From positions 1 to 50,263 of IMG/VR virus record IMGVR_UViG_3300029142_000003: a DNA stretch of 50,263 bases; one strand, 5' to 3'. The stretch is from a virus. Both the position numbers and the translations under genes were made by a program. The notes beneath the pieces were generated by a model that ran no database searches, had not been told where the DNA came from, and was given only the letters and a program-made list of their open reading frames with translations. Positions 11,233 through 50,263 of the stretch are shown here, piece by piece (position 1 is the stretch's first letter; each line of letters begins with the position of its first letter).

Positions 11233-11573
11233 AAATAAGTTTTGCAGCGGTAGGTAGCGACAACAGTCTTGTGGTCGTGAGGAAGCAGCAGAGAGCCTCG
11301 GCTCGAACTCGGAAGGCGGAACCGCGCAAAAGGGAGGAATGGGCAGCCTAGGCGCTACGGTTACGGCTGTAGGTCCATTCCTCCCAACCAATTCCCGAAT
11401 ATCTCAGGAGTGCGCCCGCTAGCTAGCATGTTGGGCTATTAACACTCGGTGGTATTAGGGCGTACATGAGGCGTATTGCCGATGACGTTGTCCTTTTATC
11501 AAGGTAGCTATTGAGCTGATAGCGAGGACCGGGTTGGGAACCCCGGCTGAGGTTGCTTTTTTTGGAGGTAAAT

Positions 11574-12254
11574 ATGCTGATACAGGACAGGGCCAAGAAA
11601 ATATTGTCTCTGGACAACTACAGCCAAAGCAATTATGTAGCCCCAATCAGCAGACTTATTCTTGATCCACCCCATTTTCGTAAGAGTATTCTCAGGATGC
11701 CCATCCAAGAATATGATGGGGCAATTTTATTGCCAAGCGAGTTTAATTGGTGTAAGCCATTGATCAGGATGGCTTATGACAGCCAAAAGCATTTCATTGG
11801 TGTCAGCCATCCATTTGTCTATTTGACAATAAGGCACGGAGTTGGATGGAAAGACACTACTGATTGGCACGTTGATGGATTTTCTATGAGGTTTAACCAT
11901 CTTCCTGGGCAAAATTATATATGGTGCAATAAATATCCCACACAATTTGCGAGTGTCAGAGGTGACTTCCCGACAGATTTCGATCCAATGGAACACAACA
12001 TTCATAAATTCCTGTCCAATAGGATTACAGATTTTTGGGATAGTTCCCCACAGATGCTATATTGTATAGACCCGTATATATTGCATAGAACTCCTGATAT
12101 TTGGCCACAATTGGCTAAAGATAGAATATTTGTTAGAGTTTCCTTTGTACCTATTGAAATCAGGGATATAAATAACACTCAAAATCCCTATATACCAAAA
12201 CATCATTTAGGTGACGGTGTAGCTGATTTTCGAAACACCTTGAAGGAGTATTAA
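11574..12254 (+). CDS. 2OG-Fe(II) oxygenase-like (double-stranded beta-helix) protein
   Basis: GGAGG 7 nt before the ATG at 11574 (the track's TTG start at 11553 is less likely). Motifs HxD (WHVDG), distal His (YILHRTP) and RxS (RVS). Confidence 0.45.
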   Translation: MLIQDRAKKILSLDNYSQSNYVAPISRLILDPPHFRKSILRMPIQEYDGAILLPSEFNWCKPLIRMAYDSQKHFIGVSHPFVYLTIRHGVGWKDTTDWHVDGFSMRFNHLPGQNYIWCNKYPTQFASVRGDFPTDFDPMEHNIHKFLSNRITDFWDSSPQMLYCIDPYILHRTPDIWPQLAKDRIFVRVSFVPIEIRDINNTQNPYIPKHHLGDGVADFRNTLKEY

Positions 12255-12255
12255 C

Positions 12256-12774
12256 GTGCGAAAACTACTTATGATGTTGGCCCTTGTTGGTCTATTTGCC
12301 GGGGTTGCAGCTTGCAATCCTGCCGCTGCATCTGAAGACCTGCAACAATCCACCCTTGATGAGGCTTTGGCTAAAGCTGTCGGGGATGTGAGCGAGGGCG
12401 TGGCAAAGCTTTCAAGTAAGCTGGAATCTCTGGCCACTGAACATGGTCAGGTCGCTTGGGACTTGGCCTTGAATGTAGCTAGGGTTCAGGCTGCATCCGA
12501 AATCTTCGCAGGATTAGTCGCACTGATGATTTTTCTTATCTGTCTGAGATTCTTCCTCAAGGGTGTAAAAATGGGCGGAACTCCGGTTGAAGGGGAAAGT
12601 TCAATTCAGCAAGATGATCGGGAAGTGAAGGCTGCATTTATCGCTATACCAAGCGCAATTATCGGGCTTATATCGTTTGTCCCGACATTTTTGTATCTAA
12701 AGGACTTATGGTCCTGGATCGGTATCGTCTACCCAGAACTATATATCGCCCACCAAGTCATGGAGAAATTGTAA
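12256..12774 (+). CDS. predicted lipoprotein/membrane protein (172 aa)
   Basis: GTG start 1 nt after the upstream stop. Signal plus lipobox-like LFAGVAAC, then two further hydrophobic spans. Confidence 0.5.
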   Translation: MRKLLMMLALVGLFAGVAACNPAAASEDLQQSTLDEALAKAVGDVSEGVAKLSSKLESLATEHGQVAWDLALNVARVQAASEIFAGLVALMIFLICLRFFLKGVKMGGTPVEGESSIQQDDREVKAAFIAIPSAIIGLISFVPTFLYLKDLWSWIGIVYPELYIAHQVMEKL

Positions 12775-12775
12775 T

Positions 12776-13246
12776 ATGACAGGGTTTGCAATGGCTGAAG
12801 ATTTTATTCAGCGTCAAGCGGAAGAAGCCACAAATTGGCGGATTCCTGCGCGTCCTGAGCTGTGTAAAGGCCAGCTTATTGTTCTTTACGGCACTCTAAT
12901 GGGCTATAAAGGCGAACAATTGAAGTATAAGCGCGATTGCTTGCTTCATGGAAAGATTTTAAATATCGGCTCTTTCCCAGGGTTTGTGGAAAATGCCGAA
13001 GGGGAGTGCTACATCACTCATGGGGAATTGTACGAGATTGTCGATACCGACATTATCGACCAGTTCGACCCGTATGAGGGCTATGACCCCGAGCGCCACG
13101 ATGAAAGTTTCTATCGTCGCGAATATCGGTATCTAGCACGCCCCAACAACCTTAGTGCTTGGGTCTATGTCTGGAATGGAGATCAGGACTTTGATGTAGT
13201 TCCCAATGGCAATTGGAGAGACTTCAATGCTGTCCGTAACGACTGA
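12776..13246 (+). CDS. gamma-glutamylcyclotransferase (AIG2/GGACT-like)
   Basis: Motifs LYGTL, HGELYEI, FDPYEGY and YRREY are characteristic of the family. Confidence 0.7.
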   Translation: MTGFAMAEDFIQRQAEEATNWRIPARPELCKGQLIVLYGTLMGYKGEQLKYKRDCLLHGKILNIGSFPGFVENAEGECYITHGELYEIVDTDIIDQFDPYEGYDPERHDESFYRREYRYLARPNNLSAWVYVWNGDQDFDVVPNGNWRDFNAVRND

Positions 13247-13430
13247 CAAGACTAAGGACTACATCATCACAACAGCGAGAGGCCCCCATAAGGAGGTCGC
13301 TCGCTGGATGGTGAGGAATACGAATAACGGGGCTGAGTATGTATCAGCAGAGTATAACAGACTGGAAGATGGCGAGAGCCTTGCGATTATCACTAACGCG
13401 AATGAGAAACTCGATGAAAAAGAAAGCTAA
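13227..13430 (+). CDS. hypothetical protein (67 aa; alternative start 13206)
   Basis: GGAGAG upstream of the ATG at 13227. Overlaps both neighbouring genes by a few codons. Confidence 0.4.
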   Translation: MLSVTTDKTKDYIITTARGPHKEVARWMVRNTNNGAEYVSAEYNRLEDGESLAIITNANEKLDEKES

Positions 13431-14412
13431 GACCGGGGATATTCCCTCAGACGTCGAAATTATGAGCCATAGTCGTATTCATGATATTGTTGGTAACAGC
13501 TGTTATGGCTCATATAATGAGAAGGTGGTGACACCTGACATGAAAGGGGCCGAGAAGGTTGGTTTAGAAATTATGAAGCTCTCATGTGGATATGATGAGG
13601 ATATTAGCTTTGCTCTAATCGACTATGATGGTAAGGTTATCGAATATTTTGACCAAGCTTGTTGGGCTGCCCTTATTGATGGAATAACAGGTGTAAAATA
13701 CCTCGTATCTGATGCGTTTTCCTGGCGCAGAGCTAATTACGGGAATGAAATTGTTGACTATGAGAGAGATTATTTGAATTGGCTCATACACGATTCTTGG
13801 CTCTCTGATGTCTTCGAGAATCCAGATGCAGACCATATGTGGAAATATGGTGTAATCGTCAACACAAAGCACTCCCCCCAAATGATACATCACGCTAATT
13901 GCTGTGTGAGATATTTGAGCGAATATAGGTATACCCCCAGGGCTTGGGCTTTCTTGAAAGATTGTGACGGTATGACAGACAATCTTTTATATGTCATGAT
14001 GCATTTTTTCAAGAATAATGGCTCCCCTGAAGAAGGGATTAACGGTGTTACCCCGTGTTCTTCGTATAATGAACACAGGGCTGTGATTAGCGGAAGGTTC
14101 ACAAAGGATCATATACAGAATATAATTAGCGGCAGGATGGCAGAGGAAGGTAAACTCCCCCCGGCTTACAAATCCTTTGAATATTATGGGTTGGAAAAGG
14201 TGTTTGAGTTTAAACCCGAAAACCCCGGTAAGATGAACTACAGTTACGACAGATACTCTGACGGGTTCCAACCTAAAGAGTACCCGATGGGTAAGAAGAA
14301 AAAGGATAATTTTGGGAGAGATATTATATCTGATCCAGAATTCAATGGGAAGAAAGGGAAACAGACAGTGGTTAAGACTTTTCTTGATATACAAGGGCTG
14401 GAGGCAGCATAA
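13414..14412 (+). CDS. hypothetical cassette protein (332 aa; alternative starts 13339, 13402)
   Basis: Long ORF whose stop overlaps the next ATG (TAATG). Contains a Q-A-C-W-A segment reminiscent of papain-like thiol peptidases. No confident family assignment. Confidence 0.6.
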   Translation: MKKKAKTGDIPSDVEIMSHSRIHDIVGNSCYGSYNEKVVTPDMKGAEKVGLEIMKLSCGYDEDISFALIDYDGKVIEYFDQACWAALIDGITGVKYLVSDAFSWRRANYGNEIVDYERDYLNWLIHDSWLSDVFENPDADHMWKYGVIVNTKHSPQMIHHANCCVRYLSEYRYTPRAWAFLKDCDGMTDNLLYVMMHFFKNNGSPEEGINGVTPCSSYNEHRAVISGRFTKDHIQNIISGRMAEEGKLPPAYKSFEYYGLEKVFEFKPENPGKMNYSYDRYSDGFQPKEYPMGKKKKDNFGRDIISDPEFNGKKGKQTVVKTFLDIQGLEAA

Positions 14413-15086
14413 TGAAGGTTTTTATTGTGGAGAGCTACCCTGGTGCTGACCAGGAGTATGCTGATATGTATCGTCTCAAGGACTATACAATCGTTGATTG
14501 TTCCATGTCGGCTGACATCATTCAGTTCACTGGCGGTGAAGATGTCACCCCGTCGTTTTATGGGGAGTACAATCATCCGTCAACTTGCAACAATGAAATG
14601 AGGGACATTCGAGAACGTCTTATCTTCAACATTGGGTTAACATACAATATCCCAATGGTTGGGATTTGCCGTGGTGGGCAGTTTCTCAATGTTATGTGTG
14701 GTGGTAAACTGTGGCAAGACGTTAATTGTCATGCCATATATAGCGGTCATCCAATGGAAGACAAGTTGACCGGAAAGAGTGTATGGGTTAGCTCTACTCA
14801 TCACCAAATGATGCGACCTGGGGAAGGAGGGGAAGTTCTTGGCACTGCTAATGAGGCTTCGACGTTCGAAACATCCGCACGACCGAATAGTATACAAACT
14901 CATTACACTGCTCCTGCAAAGCAGCTTGGTGCTGATGTTGAAATCGTACTTTACAAGAAACAAAAGTGCCTGTGTTTCCAACCCCATCCAGAATACTTTG
15001 GGTTCCCGGAGTGCACAGAGTCGTTTTTCAGGCACGTAGACAATCTTTTGAAAGTAACTAAAGGAGAGAATACATGTGCGGCCTAG
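14412..15086 (+). CDS. class I glutamine amidotransferase / peptidase C26 (gamma-glutamyl hydrolase-like)
   Basis: Motifs FTGGEDVTPSFYG, GICRGGQFLNV (nucleophile Cys), HHQ and FQPHPE (His-Glu). Confidence 0.75.
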   Translation: MKVFIVESYPGADQEYADMYRLKDYTIVDCSMSADIIQFTGGEDVTPSFYGEYNHPSTCNNEMRDIRERLIFNIGLTYNIPMVGICRGGQFLNVMCGGKLWQDVNCHAIYSGHPMEDKLTGKSVWVSSTHHQMMRPGEGGEVLGTANEASTFETSARPNSIQTHYTAPAKQLGADVEIVLYKKQKCLCFQPHPEYFGFPECTESFFRHVDNLLKVTKGENTCAA

Positions 15087-16297
15087 TTGGCTTTATGGGG
15101 GACCCCTCCCAGAAGCATCAAGACGCATTCGAAGACATGTTGAATATGGATGTTATTCGTGGTCCTCATTCAACAGGCGTGGTTGCTGTTAGTCAAGACA
15201 GAGTATTTATGACTAAGAAGGCTGTACTTCCCCCCGATCTTATGTATAGCGAACGCTATATTGAAAACGTTGATCGGCGAACGTACAGCAATTTCTTGTT
15301 GATGGGGCACAATAGGTGGGCTACCACCGGCGCTGTTAACAATCGAAATGCTCATCCTTTTCAGCATGGCCACATCACTTTGATGCACAATGGAACCTTG
15401 CAATGGCCTATCGACTACAGGCAGAAATTTGAGACAGACAGCGAGGGCATTGCCTATTCGTTACAACAGAATGAAGACCCCCAAGACACTTGGTCTGAAC
15501 TGTTTGGTGCCGCTGCATTGGTGTGGTGGGATAGCCGAAAGAAAACTCTCAACGCCATACGCAACGATGAGCGACCTCTTTGGTTCTGTCCAACTAAGGA
15601 CAACAAGTCTCTGTTCTGGTCTTCAGAGCCGTGGATGTTGAAGGCAGCATGTGCTCGACGCAATGTCGAAATTGATGTAAACTCATGCTTTCAACCTTTG
15701 GAAGACGAGCTGTATTCTTTCTCTTGGAACAAGAAGGATTCGAAAGTAACCTTCGAAAATAAGAGGCTGAAGTCTTCAAGCCTCGGGAGGTCTCTTCAGT
15801 CCAAACGTTCGGACGTTTGTTCCTCGGCTGAAGACTGGTACGAAGACCAATTGTGGTACGAAACGTACGGATATGGGAAGTCCAAGCCAAAACGAAGTGG
15901 ACAGAGCGATAAACAATCTGAGGGAGTTCGCAGCGAGGGCGATGGACATTCCGATGGGACCTCTAAACCCTCCATACAGGTCGGAGAAACTACACTAGTT
16001 CTCAATCCAAAAACTCTTGTCTATGAAAAACAGGAGGATGGGGAAGAGGGAAACCTCTTGTTGGGCCAGGACATCCCTCCCAAAGAAAAATTACACATTC
16101 TCCGTCAGTACCAGAAACACTCTCTAACGGAGGAGGAGTTCAATCAGCAATACACATGTTGTCCTGGATGTGGAGAAACTTTGGAAGGCCAGTACGATGA
16201 GAGTGTCATCATAGACAAGAAAATAGCTGTCTGCCCAAGCTGTGTATCGTACTGCGAAGACGAGGGCTACAACGTGGACTTTGTATTTAAAAACTAG
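15074..16297 (+). CDS. Ntn-type class II glutamine amidotransferase with a C-terminal zinc ribbon
   Basis: N-terminal MCGLVG (Cys2 nucleophile), HNRWATTG, NAHPF, HNGTL and DSE. C-terminus has CCPGCGE...CPSC. Confidence 0.75.
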   Translation: MCGLVGFMGDPSQKHQDAFEDMLNMDVIRGPHSTGVVAVSQDRVFMTKKAVLPPDLMYSERYIENVDRRTYSNFLLMGHNRWATTGAVNNRNAHPFQHGHITLMHNGTLQWPIDYRQKFETDSEGIAYSLQQNEDPQDTWSELFGAAALVWWDSRKKTLNAIRNDERPLWFCPTKDNKSLFWSSEPWMLKAACARRNVEIDVNSCFQPLEDELYSFSWNKKDSKVTFENKRLKSSSLGRSLQSKRSDVCSSAEDWYEDQLWYETYGYGKSKPKRSGQSDKQSEGVRSEGDGHSDGTSKPSIQVGETTLVLNPKTLVYEKQEDGEEGNLLLGQDIPPKEKLHILRQYQKHSLTEEEFNQQYTCCPGCGETLEGQYDESVIIDKKIAVCPSCVSYCEDEGYNVDFVFKN

Positions 16298-16312
16298 AGA
16301 GAGATAGGAATA

Positions 16313-17122
16313 ATGGATGTTTTGATCGGAGCAGACCCTGAATTCTTCTTAAAGAAAGGGGGTAAAGACGTATCCGCTTACGGACTTGTGCCTGGGGACA
16401 AGCGGGACCCACACAAGGTTAAGGATGGGGCTGTTCAACGTGATGGACTTGCTGTTGAGTTCAATATTGATCCGGCTGAGAGCGAGGATCAGTTTGTCCA
16501 CAATATTGACAGTGTTATGGCTCAACTCAGGGATATGATTCCTAATGACGTTGAGTTTAATATCAATCCTCACGTTGAGTTCGACACGAAATATTACGAA
16601 GATCAGCCGGACGAGACTAAGGAGCTTGGGTGTGACCCAGACTACAACGCTTACACAATGCAGTCAAACAAGTCCCCTGAAGCAAGCCCATTACGGGCTG
16701 CCGGGGGGCATGTTCATATCGGATGGACTGAAGGACAAGATGTTTCCGATAGACACCATGTCGAATGCTGTGCCGACCTCGCCAAACAACTTGACTTCTA
16801 CTTGGGAGTGCCATCCGTATTGCTCGATGAGGACAAGACTCGTCGGTCACTGTACGGAATGGCTGGAGCGTTCAGGCCCAAGCCATATGGAATGGAGTAT
16901 CGAACCCTATCGAACTTCTGGCTCAAGGATGACAAACTGAAAAGGTTTGTTTATCGTGGTGCCACAATGGCCGTGAATAAGCTGGTCAATGAAAACTATC
17001 AAGCTATCCATAAGTATGGAGAAGATTATCGTAATCTGATAGATAACTCAGATACAGAACGTGCCAAAGTTTATTGTGGCAAAATTAAACCCCTTAAAAG
17101 GCTGGTAGAGGATGCAAAGTAA
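16313..17122 (+). CDS. phiEco32-type COOH-NH2 ligase (glutamine synthetase/GCS2-like fold)
   Basis: Motifs GADPEFFL, DGLAVEFNI, GCDPDYNAY, AGGHVHIGW and GMEYRTLSNFW match my recollection of Pfam COOH-NH2_lig. Confidence 0.65.
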   Translation: MDVLIGADPEFFLKKGGKDVSAYGLVPGDKRDPHKVKDGAVQRDGLAVEFNIDPAESEDQFVHNIDSVMAQLRDMIPNDVEFNINPHVEFDTKYYEDQPDETKELGCDPDYNAYTMQSNKSPEASPLRAAGGHVHIGWTEGQDVSDRHHVECCADLAKQLDFYLGVPSVLLDEDKTRRSLYGMAGAFRPKPYGMEYRTLSNFWLKDDKLKRFVYRGATMAVNKLVNENYQAIHKYGEDYRNLIDNSDTERAKVYCGKIKPLKRLVEDAK

Positions 17123-17762
17123 AGAGTTTTTCGACTTTGATCAGGCGGAATCCTACCTCAACAATAGCCTGATCAGGTATAAGGGCGAACCTTTGTTCGT
17201 TAGAAGGGTCTTCGATGAGGACTTCAACCGCTTCTTTATCCGTGGGGATAGAAGTGTTGATGGGGAACCCGTAACTGTCCCAACCACTAGCAAGGACGTA
17301 GATTACACACCTATGGAGCTGGGTTTCTTTAACTACACTAAGATTGGTATCCCAGGTATAGTCATTGCGTGCTATCGACGTCCTATTAGGGGGTGGAAAG
17401 TTGGCCTATCTAGTTGCAATGTCTCTTGGTCTTATCATGCTGATGAGAATTGCAACTCACTTGGGCCAAACTTTGGTGGTGATGACTATAATATCATCCC
17501 AAGTAAGCCACTCAGGGACTCCATTATGGGGGAATTTCCTTCATTTCAACAATGTCTGGATGACCTTAGTAGCGAGTCCAAGTTCTCACCAACATCTAGG
17601 GCTTGGTGTAAAGAATTCTCTGTTAACAATATTGGTCAGTTGCACACTCCTATAATTAAGTGGGAACCAGTGGGAAGTGTTAGTATGGATAATGGCGACA
17701 TCCATTTGGACAAAAGATACGAGTTTCTGGATGAGCTTGTTAAAGAAAGGAAGACGGCATGA
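17112..17762 (+). CDS. hypothetical cassette protein (216 aa)
   Basis: Overlaps the upstream gene by 11 nt and the downstream gene by ATGA. No family recognised. Confidence 0.6.
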   Translation: MQSKEFFDFDQAESYLNNSLIRYKGEPLFVRRVFDEDFNRFFIRGDRSVDGEPVTVPTTSKDVDYTPMELGFFNYTKIGIPGIVIACYRRPIRGWKVGLSSCNVSWSYHADENCNSLGPNFGGDDYNIIPSKPLRDSIMGEFPSFQQCLDDLSSESKFSPTSRAWCKEFSVNNIGQLHTPIIKWEPVGSVSMDNGDIHLDKRYEFLDELVKERKTA

Positions 17763-18793
17763 ATGTATCAGGCTATTTCGGAACCGGCAAACTTGATAAG
17801 AATAAAGAGGTCGGGATTGAGATCGAAATGGAAGGGCGGAACCTCGTAAACTACGATATGAACTATTGGAAATGCGAGGGGGATGGTTCATTAAGAGGGG
17901 AGTCGATTGAGTGGGTACTGAAATCCCCTGTCAACAGGAACAGGGTTGTGTCCCGAATCAAATATCTGATTGAAACTATGAAAGCTCAGAAAGCCGTGCT
18001 GAGACCGTCAGATAGATGCGGTGTCCATATTCATGTCAACTGTCAAACACTGGACTTCGAACAATTGTTTCGGTTCATCAGTTTGTACGCTGTATTTGAA
18101 GACGTACTGACCAACTGGTGCGGTGATGATAGGGAGGGAAATTTATTCTGTCTCAGAATGAAGGACGCTTCCCATCTATTGTCTATGTTGGCAGCCTGTA
18201 AGAAAGAGGGAGACATATATGCGGTATGTAACGATCATTACAGGTATGGAGCCTTGAACCTAGCTGCTCTGGCTAAGTATGGGTCTTTGGAATTCAGGCA
18301 GATGAGAACGCCTGACAATCTCATGGAGATTGATGTTTGGGCTGATGCCTTAATGAGAATTTTCGACTATGCCAAAGACAATAGCAATGAGCACGATTAC
18401 ATCCAAGCTGTGTCAATGAGAGGTGGGCTTGCTTTCGCCAAAGATGTGCTTGGGGACATGGTTAAGGTGTTTGTCAATAATAAGAACGCACATCTCATCA
18501 TGGACGGTGCTCGTAGGGCTCAATTCCTTGTTAACATCCCTCTAGCAGACAGTTTGAAAGATAATAAAGAGGACAGAAAGAAGAAACGACCTCAGGTTAA
18601 TCGGTTTGGTGGTGGCAGAATTGTCTTGGACAACGGACACGGTCGCCAACATGTAGAACCTGTCGATAACTTAGCTATTAACTGGATTGCCAATGAAATA
18701 AGGGAGGAATATGGTGGGGATATAGAGTTCGGTGGCGACTTTAATGTTAACTTAGGAGATGCACCTTTACCTGTACCGAGGCCAGGACGATAA
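17759..18793 (+). CDS. amidoligase (Amidoligase_2 family, GS-like)
   Basis: Motifs GIEIEMEG, EGDGSLRGESIEW, CGVHIHVN and GSLEFRQMRTP. Confidence 0.7.
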   Translation: MNVSGYFGTGKLDKNKEVGIEIEMEGRNLVNYDMNYWKCEGDGSLRGESIEWVLKSPVNRNRVVSRIKYLIETMKAQKAVLRPSDRCGVHIHVNCQTLDFEQLFRFISLYAVFEDVLTNWCGDDREGNLFCLRMKDASHLLSMLAACKKEGDIYAVCNDHYRYGALNLAALAKYGSLEFRQMRTPDNLMEIDVWADALMRIFDYAKDNSNEHDYIQAVSMRGGLAFAKDVLGDMVKVFVNNKNAHLIMDGARRAQFLVNIPLADSLKDNKEDRKKKRPQVNRFGGGRIVLDNGHGRQHVEPVDNLAINWIANEIREEYGGDIEFGGDFNVNLGDAPLPVPRPGR

Positions 18794-18796
18794 TAT

Positions 18797-19552
18797 ATGC
18801 TGATATACCCATATAAACCAGGAAGTAAAGGAGGCAAGGCTCTAGCTAAAAGCATAGGGGCTAAGAGAATAAAACATAAAGGCTCAAGGTTTAGAGGAGG
18901 ACCAAACAAAACAGTAATTAATTGGGGGGCAACTGAGCTGCCTGAACAGGTTACGAAGTGTAAAGTTATAAACCCCCCTGAAGCCGTTTTAAGGGCCGCT
19001 GACAAGCTTCAGTTCTTTAAGGCTATGGAGGGGCAGGACCTCACTCCAGCCTTCTGTACGGGCCTCCAAGAGGCTTCTGAGTGGGTGTCAGATGGAAAGA
19101 TAGTAGTGTGTCGTACAATGTTGCGTGCCAACAGTGGTAGAGGCATAGTTATAGCGGAGAAAGAAGACGAACTAGTACATGCCCCGCTGTATGTTGAGTA
19201 TATCAAAAAGAAAGAGGAGTACAGGGTACATGTGTACAAAGGAGACTGCTTCGACATCCAGCGCAAAGCAAGACGAGCTGATACGCCTGACGAGCAGGTT
19301 AACTGGCGAGTACGGAACCATGATAATGGATTTATCTTTGCCAGAGAGGGCGTTAACGAATCCCCATATGCCGAGAGACTTCATGAACTTGCAAGAAACT
19401 CTTGTTGCGTACTTGGTCTTGATTTTGGAGCGGTCGATATCATCTGGAACGAGAGACGAGAGAGAGGATACGTTCTCGAAGTTAACACTGCACCCGGATT
19501 GGAAGGAACTACTCTCGAAAAATATTTAGGGATGATAGGAGGTATAGAATAA
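18797..19552 (+). CDS. ATP-grasp ligase (RimK-like)
   Basis: Glycine-rich loop ANSGRGI, hinge YVEYI, and Mg/ATP site DFGAVDIIWN....YVLEVNTAPG. Confidence 0.75.
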   Translation: MLIYPYKPGSKGGKALAKSIGAKRIKHKGSRFRGGPNKTVINWGATELPEQVTKCKVINPPEAVLRAADKLQFFKAMEGQDLTPAFCTGLQEASEWVSDGKIVVCRTMLRANSGRGIVIAEKEDELVHAPLYVEYIKKKEEYRVHVYKGDCFDIQRKARRADTPDEQVNWRVRNHDNGFIFAREGVNESPYAERLHELARNSCCVLGLDFGAVDIIWNERRERGYVLEVNTAPGLEGTTLEKYLGMIGGIE

Positions 19553-19671
19553 AAATCTTTAAAAATTTTCTGGGACAAAAAAAATTAATATTTATTTTGT
19601 CAGTTTTTACCTCTAAATTTGGTCTATATATATAGGAACTATTTATACAGTACCAATCACTCAGGATTTAT
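19553..19671. promoter_or_regulatory. AT-rich spacer upstream of primase-helicase; candidate promoter and/or replication origin
   Basis: No ORF. Carries GGACAAAAAAA (19573..) and GTCTATATATATAG (19622..19635), both also found in 7741..7930. Inverted GACAAAA/TTTTGTC. Confidence 0.55.
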
Positions 19672-25031: not shown

Positions 25032-25108
25032 GGCTCTCTAGCTCAATTGCGAAGAGCACTTGCCTGATTAGCGAGAGGTTCCAGGTTCGAGTCCTGGGGG
25101 AGCCACCA
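25032..25108 (+). tRNA. tRNA, anticodon GAU (Ile), with encoded CCA
   Basis: Hand-folded cloverleaf. 7-bp acceptor (one G-U), D stem GCTC/GAGC, anticodon stem CTTGC/GCGAG with loop CTGATTA, 5-nt variable loop, T arm CCAGG-TTCGAGT-CCTGG, discriminator A. Atypical T at position 37 and only one G in the D loop. Confidence 0.65.
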
Positions 25109-28801: not shown

Positions 28802-28982
28802 AGATCAAGCAGCAGCAATGACGTCTATGCTGCAACTGATCGCTAAGCAGCAACGGACAATTATACAAGGTCTGGATAAAATTTACAACAAACAACTTGA
28901 TACGGAGAAGCTATTAAATGAACCAGTTGGAATTATACCCGGACCTGGAGACTTCGAACCCCAAGGACAGACTGGGGGTTAA
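28794..28982 (+). CDS. hypothetical protein (62 aa)
   Basis: Packed same-strand ORF. Its 3' end overlaps the next gene by 65 nt, so one of the two boundaries is uncertain. Confidence 0.4.
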   Translation: MTEDQAAAMTSMLQLIAKQQRTIIQGLDKIYNKQLDTEKLLNEPVGIIPGPGDFEPQGQTGG

Positions 28983-29367
28983 GAAGGTATCTATGGCCTG
29001 TGTTCCAGCGCCAGTGTTGATGGAGATGTCCCTAGCCCTCATGGAGGGGGCTAGGAAATACGGTAGACATAATTACCGTAAGTCGCCTGTCTTAGCTAGT
29101 ATCTATTACGATGCAGCAATGCGTCATATCATGGCTTGGTGGGAAGGGGAAGAGTTCGCTAAAGATAGTGGTATGCATCACTTGGCCCACGCTATGGCAT
29201 GTCTTGCTATTATTCGTGACACTACATTACAAGGAACTTTTATTGATGACAGACCACCGACATCTCCAGACTATTGGATGACAATCATGAATGAACAGGT
29301 GGAGGACCTGTTAGAAAAGTATCCTGATTGCGAACCTCCTGTAACTAATAATAATAAGGACGACTAA
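28918..29367 (+). CDS. all-alpha dNTP pyrophosphohydrolase domain protein (dATP/dGTP diphosphohydrolase-like, DUF5664-type)
   Basis: SNPKD..G.KK.....VP......LALMEGARKYGRHNYR and HLAHAMACL match my recollection of this phage family. Confidence 0.55.
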   Translation: MNQLELYPDLETSNPKDRLGVKKVSMACVPAPVLMEMSLALMEGARKYGRHNYRKSPVLASIYYDAAMRHIMAWWEGEEFAKDSGMHHLAHAMACLAIIRDTTLQGTFIDDRPPTSPDYWMTIMNEQVEDLLEKYPDCEPPVTNNNKDD

Positions 29368-50087: not shown

Positions 50088-50263
50088 CTACTCCAATAGA
50101 AGTCTGTCACCACTTTCAAGAAGGATAGCGTCCCCAATTTCTAAGAGAAGGACATCCTCAGGACCAGCGGCTTCTGGTGTGGTATTTGTTACAGCGGTAC
50201 CACCATCATCAAGAATATAGTATAGATTTACATCCACTGTCCCAGACAGGGACTCAATCGAAA
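50088..50263 (-). CDS. 3' part of the 142-aa junction-spanning ORF (see 1..352)
   Basis: Codons traced by hand from the overlap to TAG at 50088..50090. C-terminus is ...PEDVLLLEIGDAILLESGDRLLLE. Confidence 0.7.
   Translation of the reverse strand, partial: SIESLSGTVDVNLYYILDDGGTAVTNTTPEAAGPEDVLLLEIGDAILLESGDRLLLE
50165..50263. repeat. terminal overlap, copy 2 (identical to 1..99)
   Basis: Exact 99-nt identity. Confidence 0.95.

Follow-up and report, generated by a model that had tools for sequence, protein, structure and literature searches.

The window analyzed here is the whole of a 50,263-nucleotide (nt) stretch of viral DNA, positions 1 to 50,263 of the IMG/VR virus record IMGVR_UViG_3300029142_000003. 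The genes at its positions 11574-19552 constitute a divergent new copy of a phage amidoligase cassette that is already known and named, together with three lineage-specific passengers. An earlier, sequence-only reading of this DNA had taken the eleven genes for one unit that looks like a full pathway, but the block is not a new eleven-gene pathway. The conserved part consists of five core and three accessory genes, the three remaining open reading frames (ORFs) being found in 0/86 related cassettes, and the cassette has a published name as well as a hypothesis put forward ahead of experiment (PMC5498523, PMC11945000, and PMC10580990). Since positions 1-99 of the window recur exactly as positions 50165-50263 (a 99-nt terminal repeat), the genome is closed and circular, with a length of 50,164 bp.

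The cassette was described by comparative genomics by Iyer et al. in 2009, as cited in PMC2938197 and PMC10580990, and appears as a seven-gene "peptidoglycan modification cassette" in the passages of Duhaime 2017 that treat it, which cite Hardies 2013 (PMC5498523). The carriers named there are RIO-1, PSA-HP1, phiEco32, 7-11, PA11, tf, MR299-2, LUZ24, PaP3, and CW02, and the hypothesis is that the cassette alters the cell wall and prevents superinfection. The cell-wall hypothesis is also found in PMC10580990, and a 2025 paper repeats it, adding preparation of the wall for lysis (PMC11945000). Cassettes have been reported in Zobellviridae, Kuravirus, and Bruynoghevirus. In Kuravirus SU10, the ATP-grasp, amidotransferase, and GGACT-like genes are classed as early, and the corresponding proteins were detected by mass spectrometry in lysate concentrated with PEG (polyethylene glycol) (PMC4281155). 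We found no experimental product, substrate, or phenotype for the cassette in the published literature, which agrees with the earlier statement that no product has been assigned. Beyond the literature that we consulted, our analysis counts which genes are core, accessory, or lineage-specific, identifies U8 and U4 as families of the cassette, and finds that G2 combines a zinc ribbon with the lack of a synthase domain, that L1, L2, and U4 have no solved relative, and that the cassette is restricted to phages.

Five core genes and three accessories form the conserved cassette

The eight conserved genes of the window are listed below from 5' to 3', with their best family match and their frequency in related loci.

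12776-13246, plus strand: CT, AIG2/GGACT-type gamma-glutamyl(amine) cyclotransferase (Pfam GGACT, 3.5e-12); accessory, 27/55 loci
13414-14412, plus strand: U4, 332 residues (aa), phage-only family with invariant Cys, Arg, Glu, and His; frequent accessory, 36/55 loci
14412-15086, plus strand: G1, class I amidotransferase fold of the Peptidase_C26 / gamma-glutamyl-amide hydrolase type (Pfam Peptidase_C26, 5.6e-18); accessory, 43/55 loci
15074-16297, plus strand: G2, Ntn (class II) glutaminase (Pfam GATase_6, 1.6e-12); core, 54/55 loci
16313-17122, plus strand: L1, phiEco32-type COOH-NH2 ligase of GCS/glutamine-synthetase-like fold (PF14395, E 1.2e-13); core, 54/55 loci
17112-17762, plus strand: U8, 216 aa, encoded between L1 and L2 (phrog_11055, 1.6e-18); core, 53/55 loci
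17759-18793, plus strand: L2, Amidoligase_2 of glutamine-synthetase-like fold (PF12224, E 2.6e-10); core, 54/55 loci
18797-19552, plus strand: AG, ATP-grasp ligase of the RimK/MptN/CofF/LysX alpha-L-glutamate-ligase group (phrog_2599, 8e-84); core

These counts come from iterative searches on the 55 loci in which the sequence 5' of the ATP-grasp gene is 8 kb or longer. Five genes, G2, L1, U8, L2, and AG, are near-invariant (53-55/55 loci), and G1, U4, and CT are frequent accessories; among 86 loci, no additional family is recurrent within the cassette. The order (CT)-U4-G1-G2-L1-U8-L2-AG is found in 38/55 loci, the exact order of the window, CT-U4-G1-G2-L1-U8-L2-AG, is common to 10 loci, and the L1-U8-L2 triplet is essentially unbroken throughout. 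The cassette lies directly 5' of primase/helicase in every lineage examined, with primase/helicase downstream in 66 loci, and its recurrent downstream neighbors are primase/helicase, sigma factor, and DNA polymerase. The same gene set occupies this position in Kuravirus (Bas91), Bruynoghevirus (EPa83), and Salinovirus CW02. Synteny in related phages, on which the idea of a single pathway had been made to depend, is thus kept across three phage groups, and co-occurrence of the core together with the kept gene order argues that the cassette is one functional unit.

The 5' part of the cassette is more variable. The Kuravirus (L004, 3319-5497) and Bruynoghevirus (L005, 2663-4600) cassettes are devoid of recognizable G1 and U4 and encode there two other proteins of ~320-400 aa, and their Ntn enzymes are far longer (510-676 aa). 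When these upstream proteins were compared with U4 and G1, there was no hhalign signal and a single marginal Foldseek match (EP335, E 0.05).

The cassette ligases are present in 319-326 isolated phage genomes, and a relative of AG is encoded in at least 520 IMG/VR stretches. In a search of 185,579 species genomes, all good matches were on phage-sized or short contigs of metagenome-assembled genomes, and no cellular version of the cassette was found in isolate genomes. To judge from these searches, the cassette is restricted to phages. As for the present copy, no sequenced phage matches the genome at the DNA level by megablast. Protein searches, with identities of 42-56%, group it with Zobellviridae (Paundecimvirus PA11/O4/Ty/TC6, Citrovirus CVT22, and Salinovirus CW02) and with allied phages from Klebsiella and an oyster metagenome. 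The window therefore has the same families as known cassettes (COOH-NH2_lig, Amidoligase_2, RimK-like ATP-grasp, class I/II amidotransferases, and GGCT), in the same order with L1-U8-L2 unbroken, and in the same place. It differs from them in a protein identity to sequenced relatives of 42-56% at most and in the presence of three additional coupled ORFs on the 5' side.

The active sites of the cassette enzymes are conserved

Residue conservation was computed in alignments of 31-86 homologs per enzyme, in which the catalytic residues of all six enzymes are 95-100% conserved. The residues that are kept include the class I Cys-His-Glu triad, the Ntn Cys2 with the Gln-binding Arg/Asp and the oxyanion Asn-Gly, the GGACT Glu, the metal and phosphate ligands of both ligases of glutamine-synthetase (GS) fold, and the ATP-grasp Mg ligands. 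Six of the seven enzymes that had been proposed from short motifs are supported by profile searches: five pass the Pfam gathering score (GGACT, Peptidase_C26/GATase, GATase_6, COOH-NH2_lig, and Amidoligase_2), and the ATP-grasp assignment is borne out by its PHROG match and by the MptN and RimK models of NCBIfam. No hydrophobic segments were found by sequence scan in any of the cassette enzymes. Given this conservation and the lack of such segments, the enzymes are shown, at the level of sequence, to be catalytically intact and cytoplasmic.

In the two enzymes that handle gamma-glutamyl groups in their known families, the key positions are almost invariant: Y38, G39, and E101 of CT are 100% conserved in 31 homologs, and C86, H192, and E194 of G1 are conserved at 98, 98, and 100%. 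The top NCBIfam models for G1 are gamma-glutamyl-CDP-amidate hydrolase (6.5e-6) and PuuD (5.9e-5), both matched far under their cut-offs.

G2 has an unusual architecture, in which an Ntn domain (residues ~1-200) is followed by a variable low-complexity linker and then by a conserved C4 zinc ribbon; domain analysis reveals no synthase domain. Conservation is high in the Ntn domain (C2 95%, R81 98%, N106/G107 98%, and D122 100%) and also in the ribbon, whose C363, C366, C387, and C390 are conserved at 88-97%. The ribbon (16160-16297) gives weak sequence matches to Kti11/Dph3 CSL zinc fingers (E ~0.06-0.14), which probably reflect generic zinc-ribbon similarity. The LysW/LysX system likewise encodes a RimK/LysX-family ATP-grasp with a small C4 zinc-ribbon module. 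In the cassette, however, the ribbon is joined to a glutaminase in one protein and has no acidic tail with a Glu at its C terminus; we rejected it as a LysW-like carrier because its tail is not conserved, only 2/69 homologs ending in D or E.

L1 scores 51.3 bits against a PF14395 cut-off of 25 and is 49% identical to its PA11/O4 orthologs, with E10, H133, H135, E195, and R197 conserved at 98-100%. L2 scores 41 bits against a PF12224 cut-off of 22 and matches phrog_7469 (2.4e-67); its E21, E23, E25, H90, and H92 are 95% conserved, and E178 and R180 100%. Neither ligase has a relative in the PDB, even by profile search. AG is the best-conserved cassette protein; its counterparts in the cassettes of Ty, CVT22, and CW02 are 51-56% identical to it. 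Its E141, R143, H145, D214, and N230 are 100% conserved and E228 98%. It matches the NCBIfam models for MptN (8.6e-10), the RimK family (9.5e-8), CofF, and LysX, all far under the curated cut-offs; its Pfam matches are also under cut-off, and a RimK structure in the PDB is matched at 5e-3. A paper on Klebsiella CfmP was considered as a lead and set aside, the protein being an unrelated TupA-like ATP-grasp.

U4 and U8 are conserved orphan families

The sequence-only reading had estimated that the block takes up about 16 percent of the genome, which is accurate (7,979 nt, or 15.9% of 50,164 bp), and had missed two conserved members outside Pfam, U4 and U8. Their homologs were found only by exhaustive HMMER search with a seed alignment, word-indexed searches giving only self-matches.

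U4 has 41 distant homologs among 1.84 billion representatives, and its profile (A3) recovers the positional orthologs of CVT22 (7e-52), Ty (5e-44), and Asterion (4e-35). Its AF2 model is confident (pTM 0.78). The best Foldseek match in the PDB has an E value of 2.8, so that U4 has no solved fold neighbor there, and sequence and profile searches give no solved homolog either; the Foldseek matches in BFVD all come from cassette-bearing phages.

U8 has orthologs in all cassette lineages, and its conserved positions are Gly, Arg, and Pro only (G71, R89, P91, R93, G98, and G188). Its AF2 model is poor (pLDDT 56), with no significant fold match, generic SH3-like barrels (eIF5A/EF-P) appearing at E ~0.04, and no solved homolog was found. 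U8 looks nonenzymatic and is possibly an adaptor, a scaffold, or a substrate. We also considered a virion protein and rejected this candidate: the label is on 1/25 cluster members only, and LUZ24 gp17 is annotated "hypothetical."

Possible chemistry of the cassette

The reading that we favor, in which we have about even confidence, is that this Zobellviridae-type cassette forms up to three amide bonds centered on Glu/Gln on one acceptor, for which a murein precursor is our preferred candidate. L1 and L2, which flank the obligatory noncatalytic partner U8, would activate carboxylates, generating gamma-glutamyl amides and/or performing glutamine-dependent amidation with G2 as the nitrogen donor, and AG would add an alpha-linked L-Glu. 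Trimming or recycling of gamma-glutamyl groups would then fall to G1 and CT, and the zinc ribbon of G2 would be a docking module. The acceptor would be a cytoplasmic precursor of the murein stem peptide, whose modification early in infection would give an altered wall, either for superinfection exclusion or in preparation for lysis. This chemistry is drawn from family knowledge and from the nearest curated NCBIfam models: for AG these are alpha-L-glutamate ligases and for G1 gamma-glutamyl-amide hydrolases of the PuuD/Cj1417 type, and G2 keeps the Gln-binding Arg/Asp. Removal of gamma-glutamyl groups is the established role of the GGACT family.

The murein precursor itself is a tentative choice of acceptor, rather doubtful in our view. 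Its weight comes from the published hypothesis, from precedents in murein synthesis, and from the presence of ORF2, a putative envelope protein described below, in the operon. MurT/GatD and AsnB/LtsA amidate stem-peptide carboxylates with glutamine, and the ATP-grasp enzymes include Ddl and D-Asp ligase. The cassette follows a like logic, with an ATP-dependent ligase plus a glutamine amidotransferase and amino-acid addition by an ATP-grasp enzyme, and this murein-amidation logic (MurT/GatD and AsnB/LtsA) is the basis of the published hypothesis.

Several points weigh against this reading. The literature holds no experiment that links the cassette to peptidoglycan, and the cassette has no Mur-ligase, nucleotide-sugar-binding, or lipid-binding domain and no conserved membrane component. 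Compared with MurT/GatD and AsnB/LtsA, its proteins lack a Mur_ligase or asparagine-synthetase domain, and its ligases have a GS/GCS fold. Characterized relatives of AG, CT, and G2 use L-Glu or L-Gln derivatives, whereas murein has D-iso-glutamate. Since the L1 and L2 families have no characterized or solved member, their substrates cannot be inferred, and the NCBIfam matches behind G1 and AG are far under the curated cut-offs. The reading does not account for U8 and U4, and ORF2 is missing from all relatives, so that its presence says little. Occurrence in an archaeal virus, which might also have counted against murein, was set aside as an argument, since the host assignment in the paper concerned is uncertain.

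Somewhat short of even, in our estimate, are the chances that the cassette is not a cell-wall module at all but a complete, phage-exclusive pathway to an amide product derived from Glu/Gln, whether metabolite, protein tag, or nucleotide adduct, with two ligase families and a thiol-type U4 of novel fold arranged around an obligatory scaffold, U8. Were the product a protein tag, the cassette would glutamylate or amide-tag a host or phage protein, as RimK does on S6, with U8 as the adaptor or substrate and the ribbon of G2 docking on the target. AG does fall in the RimK family group, U8 is a universal noncatalytic partner between the ligases, and G2 combines a conserved zinc ribbon with the lack of a synthase domain; moreover, the GGACT family acts on epsilon-(gamma-glutamyl)lysine. 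However, U8 has no conserved acidic C terminus and no conserved Lys/Glu acceptor, the LysW-like C-terminal Glu is missing from G2, the "virion structural protein" label is confined to a single U8 ortholog, and three ligases plus two glutamine enzymes would be much machinery for a simple tag. Peptide tags were proposed for such ligases by Iyer et al. 2009, as cited in PMC2938197. On balance, we consider protein tagging unlikely.

We hold the same low expectation for a small molecule, that is, a free amine (e.g., a polyamine) that would be gamma-glutamylated, or a glutathione-like or glutamyl amide metabolite, acting on host physiology or in counter-defense. Gamma-glutamyl groups are added by a GS-fold or ATP-grasp ligase and removed by a C26-type hydrolase or an AIG2-type cyclotransferase in the PuuA/PuuD and butirosin BtrJ/BtrG pathways, and the cassette has these enzyme types: its GS-fold ligases and C26-type hydrolase give a PuuA/PuuD-like composition, the top curated matches of G1 are PuuD and gamma-glutamyl-CDP-amidate hydrolase, and CT removes gamma-glutamyl from amines. 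All the proteins are soluble, with no targeting domain except one zinc ribbon. The cassette nevertheless differs from these pathways in that its scores are far under the family cut-offs, it is found only in phages, and it has no conserved transporter, oxidase, dehydrogenase, carrier protein, or other tailoring enzyme. No metabolite has been reported in the literature, and a link to defense or anti-defense was rejected, there being no PADLOC or other defense-related matches.

The constant position beside the replication genes, directly 5' of primase/helicase, would be explained by modification of DNA or nucleotides, in the form of an amide-linked base or nucleotide hypermodification. Lee et al. 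2021 found in metagenomic contigs that amidoligase and amidotransferase Pfam domains co-occur with thymidine-hypermodification genes (PMC8989533). However, we found no dUMP hydroxymethylase, TET/JBP, 5-hmU kinase, aGPT-Pplase, TGT/DpdA, or glycosyltransferase among the scanned ORFs of the window, a scan that covered only some of the ORFs under 120 aa outside the cassette, or as a recurrent neighbor at the 86 loci. The MazZ-like dATP/dGTP diphosphohydrolase encoded downstream does not co-occur with the cassette, and the DNA of U17, a cassette-bearing LUZ24-like phage, is cut by 11/16 restriction enzymes (PMC11945000). We therefore regard this explanation as very improbable.

The identity of the product matters because hundreds of phage isolates carry the cassette, among them therapeutic phages of Pseudomonas, E. 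coli, and Klebsiella. Strong purifying selection acts on the enzymes, yet for more than 15 years no product has been known. Knowing it would give a function to two ligase families and two orphan families and would tell whether lytic phages use the cassette to remodel the cell wall of the host, to tag proteins, or to produce a new metabolite. What the present copy contributes is mainly a divergent sequence and a sharper line between core and accessory genes; the culturable carriers LUZ24, PA11/TC6, and phiEco32/Bas91 are better suited to the question of the product.

Three lineage-specific ORFs at the 5' end

The remaining three genes of the block are the following.

11574-12254, plus strand: ORF1, 226 aa, with an invariant HxD...H...R motif (phrog_1843, of unknown function, 7e-19)
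12256-12774, plus strand: ORF2, 172 aa, putative envelope protein with a signal-like N terminus and a lipobox-like VAAC at Cys20
13227-13430, plus strand: small ORF, 67 aa (74 aa if it starts at 13206), independently called on contigs L091-L093

No homologs of ORF1, ORF2, or the small ORF were found in the 86 related cassettes, nor, more narrowly, in the 55 loci with at least 8 kb of upstream sequence. The three genes are phage-specific passengers that lie outside the pathway.

The proposal that ORF1 is an oxygenase was upheld as to the motif, H99, D101, H171, R184, and S190 being invariant across five very divergent homologs (alignment A5), but found no support in profiles, as ORF1 has no Pfam, NCBIfam, or PDB profile match. 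One of its homologs weakly matches the Fe/2OG halogenase HalD (E 0.038), and ORF1 is a possible Fe/2OG oxygenase. Its homologs are confined to jumbo phages and Microbacterium phages, where the gene neighborhoods are unrelated. The family (loci L087-L090), with an invariant WHxDGF...H...R, includes proteins of the jumbo phages Serratia BF, Erwinia, Xanthomonas XbC2, and Ralstonia RSL1, and in Microbacterium phages the relative sits between the genes for a helicase and a polynucleotide kinase/RNA ligase. It is a candidate family of uncharacterized phage Fe/2OG enzymes.

Translational coupling links ORF2 to ORF1 on one side and to the GGACT gene on the other. The ORF2 protein has hydrophobic windows at residues 1-26, 76-107, and 123-148 and no family match in Pfam, PHROG, or NCBIfam, and it may be a moron of the superinfection-exclusion type. 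In the frame of the small ORF, the coding score is positive and close to those of its neighbors.

Layout of the locus and genomic context

The earlier account of 11 same-strand ORFs with almost no intergenic DNA was accurate in every coordinate, junction, and quoted motif. Gaps of 1 nt are found at 12254/12256 and 12774/12776, a TAATG junction at 14410-14414, overlaps of 13 nt at 15074-15086 and of 11 nt at 17112-17122, an ATGA junction at 17759-17762, and a 3-nt gap at 18793/18797. On four other contigs of the same phage, the same 11 genes are predicted by an independent gene caller, with different starts for the small ORF (from 13227, 67 aa) and for ORF4, the gene for U4 (from 13414, 332 aa and not 357). 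Inside the block there are 25 promoter-like sites (17.3 +/- 4.5 in shuffled sequence) and seven terminator-like sites (7.6 in shuffled sequence). Neither number is in excess, which is consistent with one transcription unit.

The block is bordered by two noncoding regions.

11233-11573: upstream spacer, 341 nt, 53% GC, noncoding, 5' of ORF1
19553-19671: downstream gap, 119 nt, 22.7% GC, separating the cassette from primase/helicase

The spacer had been described as structured. It does contain a long local hairpin and, right before the ribosome-binding site of ORF1, a terminal terminator-like hairpin with a T7 run; its folding is no better than that of shuffled sequences (z = -1.6), and it matches no Rfam family, so that we rejected a structured RNA. 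The downstream gap is as AT-rich as had been stated, and is likely a promoter or regulatory region for the replication genes.

Genes located 3' of the block encode primase/helicase, sigma factor, PolA, exonuclease, metallophosphoesterase, the MazZ-like dATP/dGTP diphosphohydrolase, and ribonucleotide reductase. The ORF for the MazZ-like protein (28918-29367, plus strand) matches Pfam dGTP_diPhyd_N (9.3e-29), which corresponds to the DUF550/MazZ-type dATP/dGTP diphosphohydrolases known from diaminopurine-genome phages; no PurZ-like gene was seen in this genome. Its best PHROG is labeled "endolysin; inhibits RNA polymerase," probably a propagated misannotation. The protein was rejected as a partner of the cassette, since the lineages do not overlap: its homologs are mainly from Mycobacterium, Ralstonia, and Rhizobium phages, outside the cassette lineages. 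A single tRNA gene, tRNA-Ile (GAT), is located at 25032-25108 on the plus strand, between the DNA polymerase and exonuclease genes.

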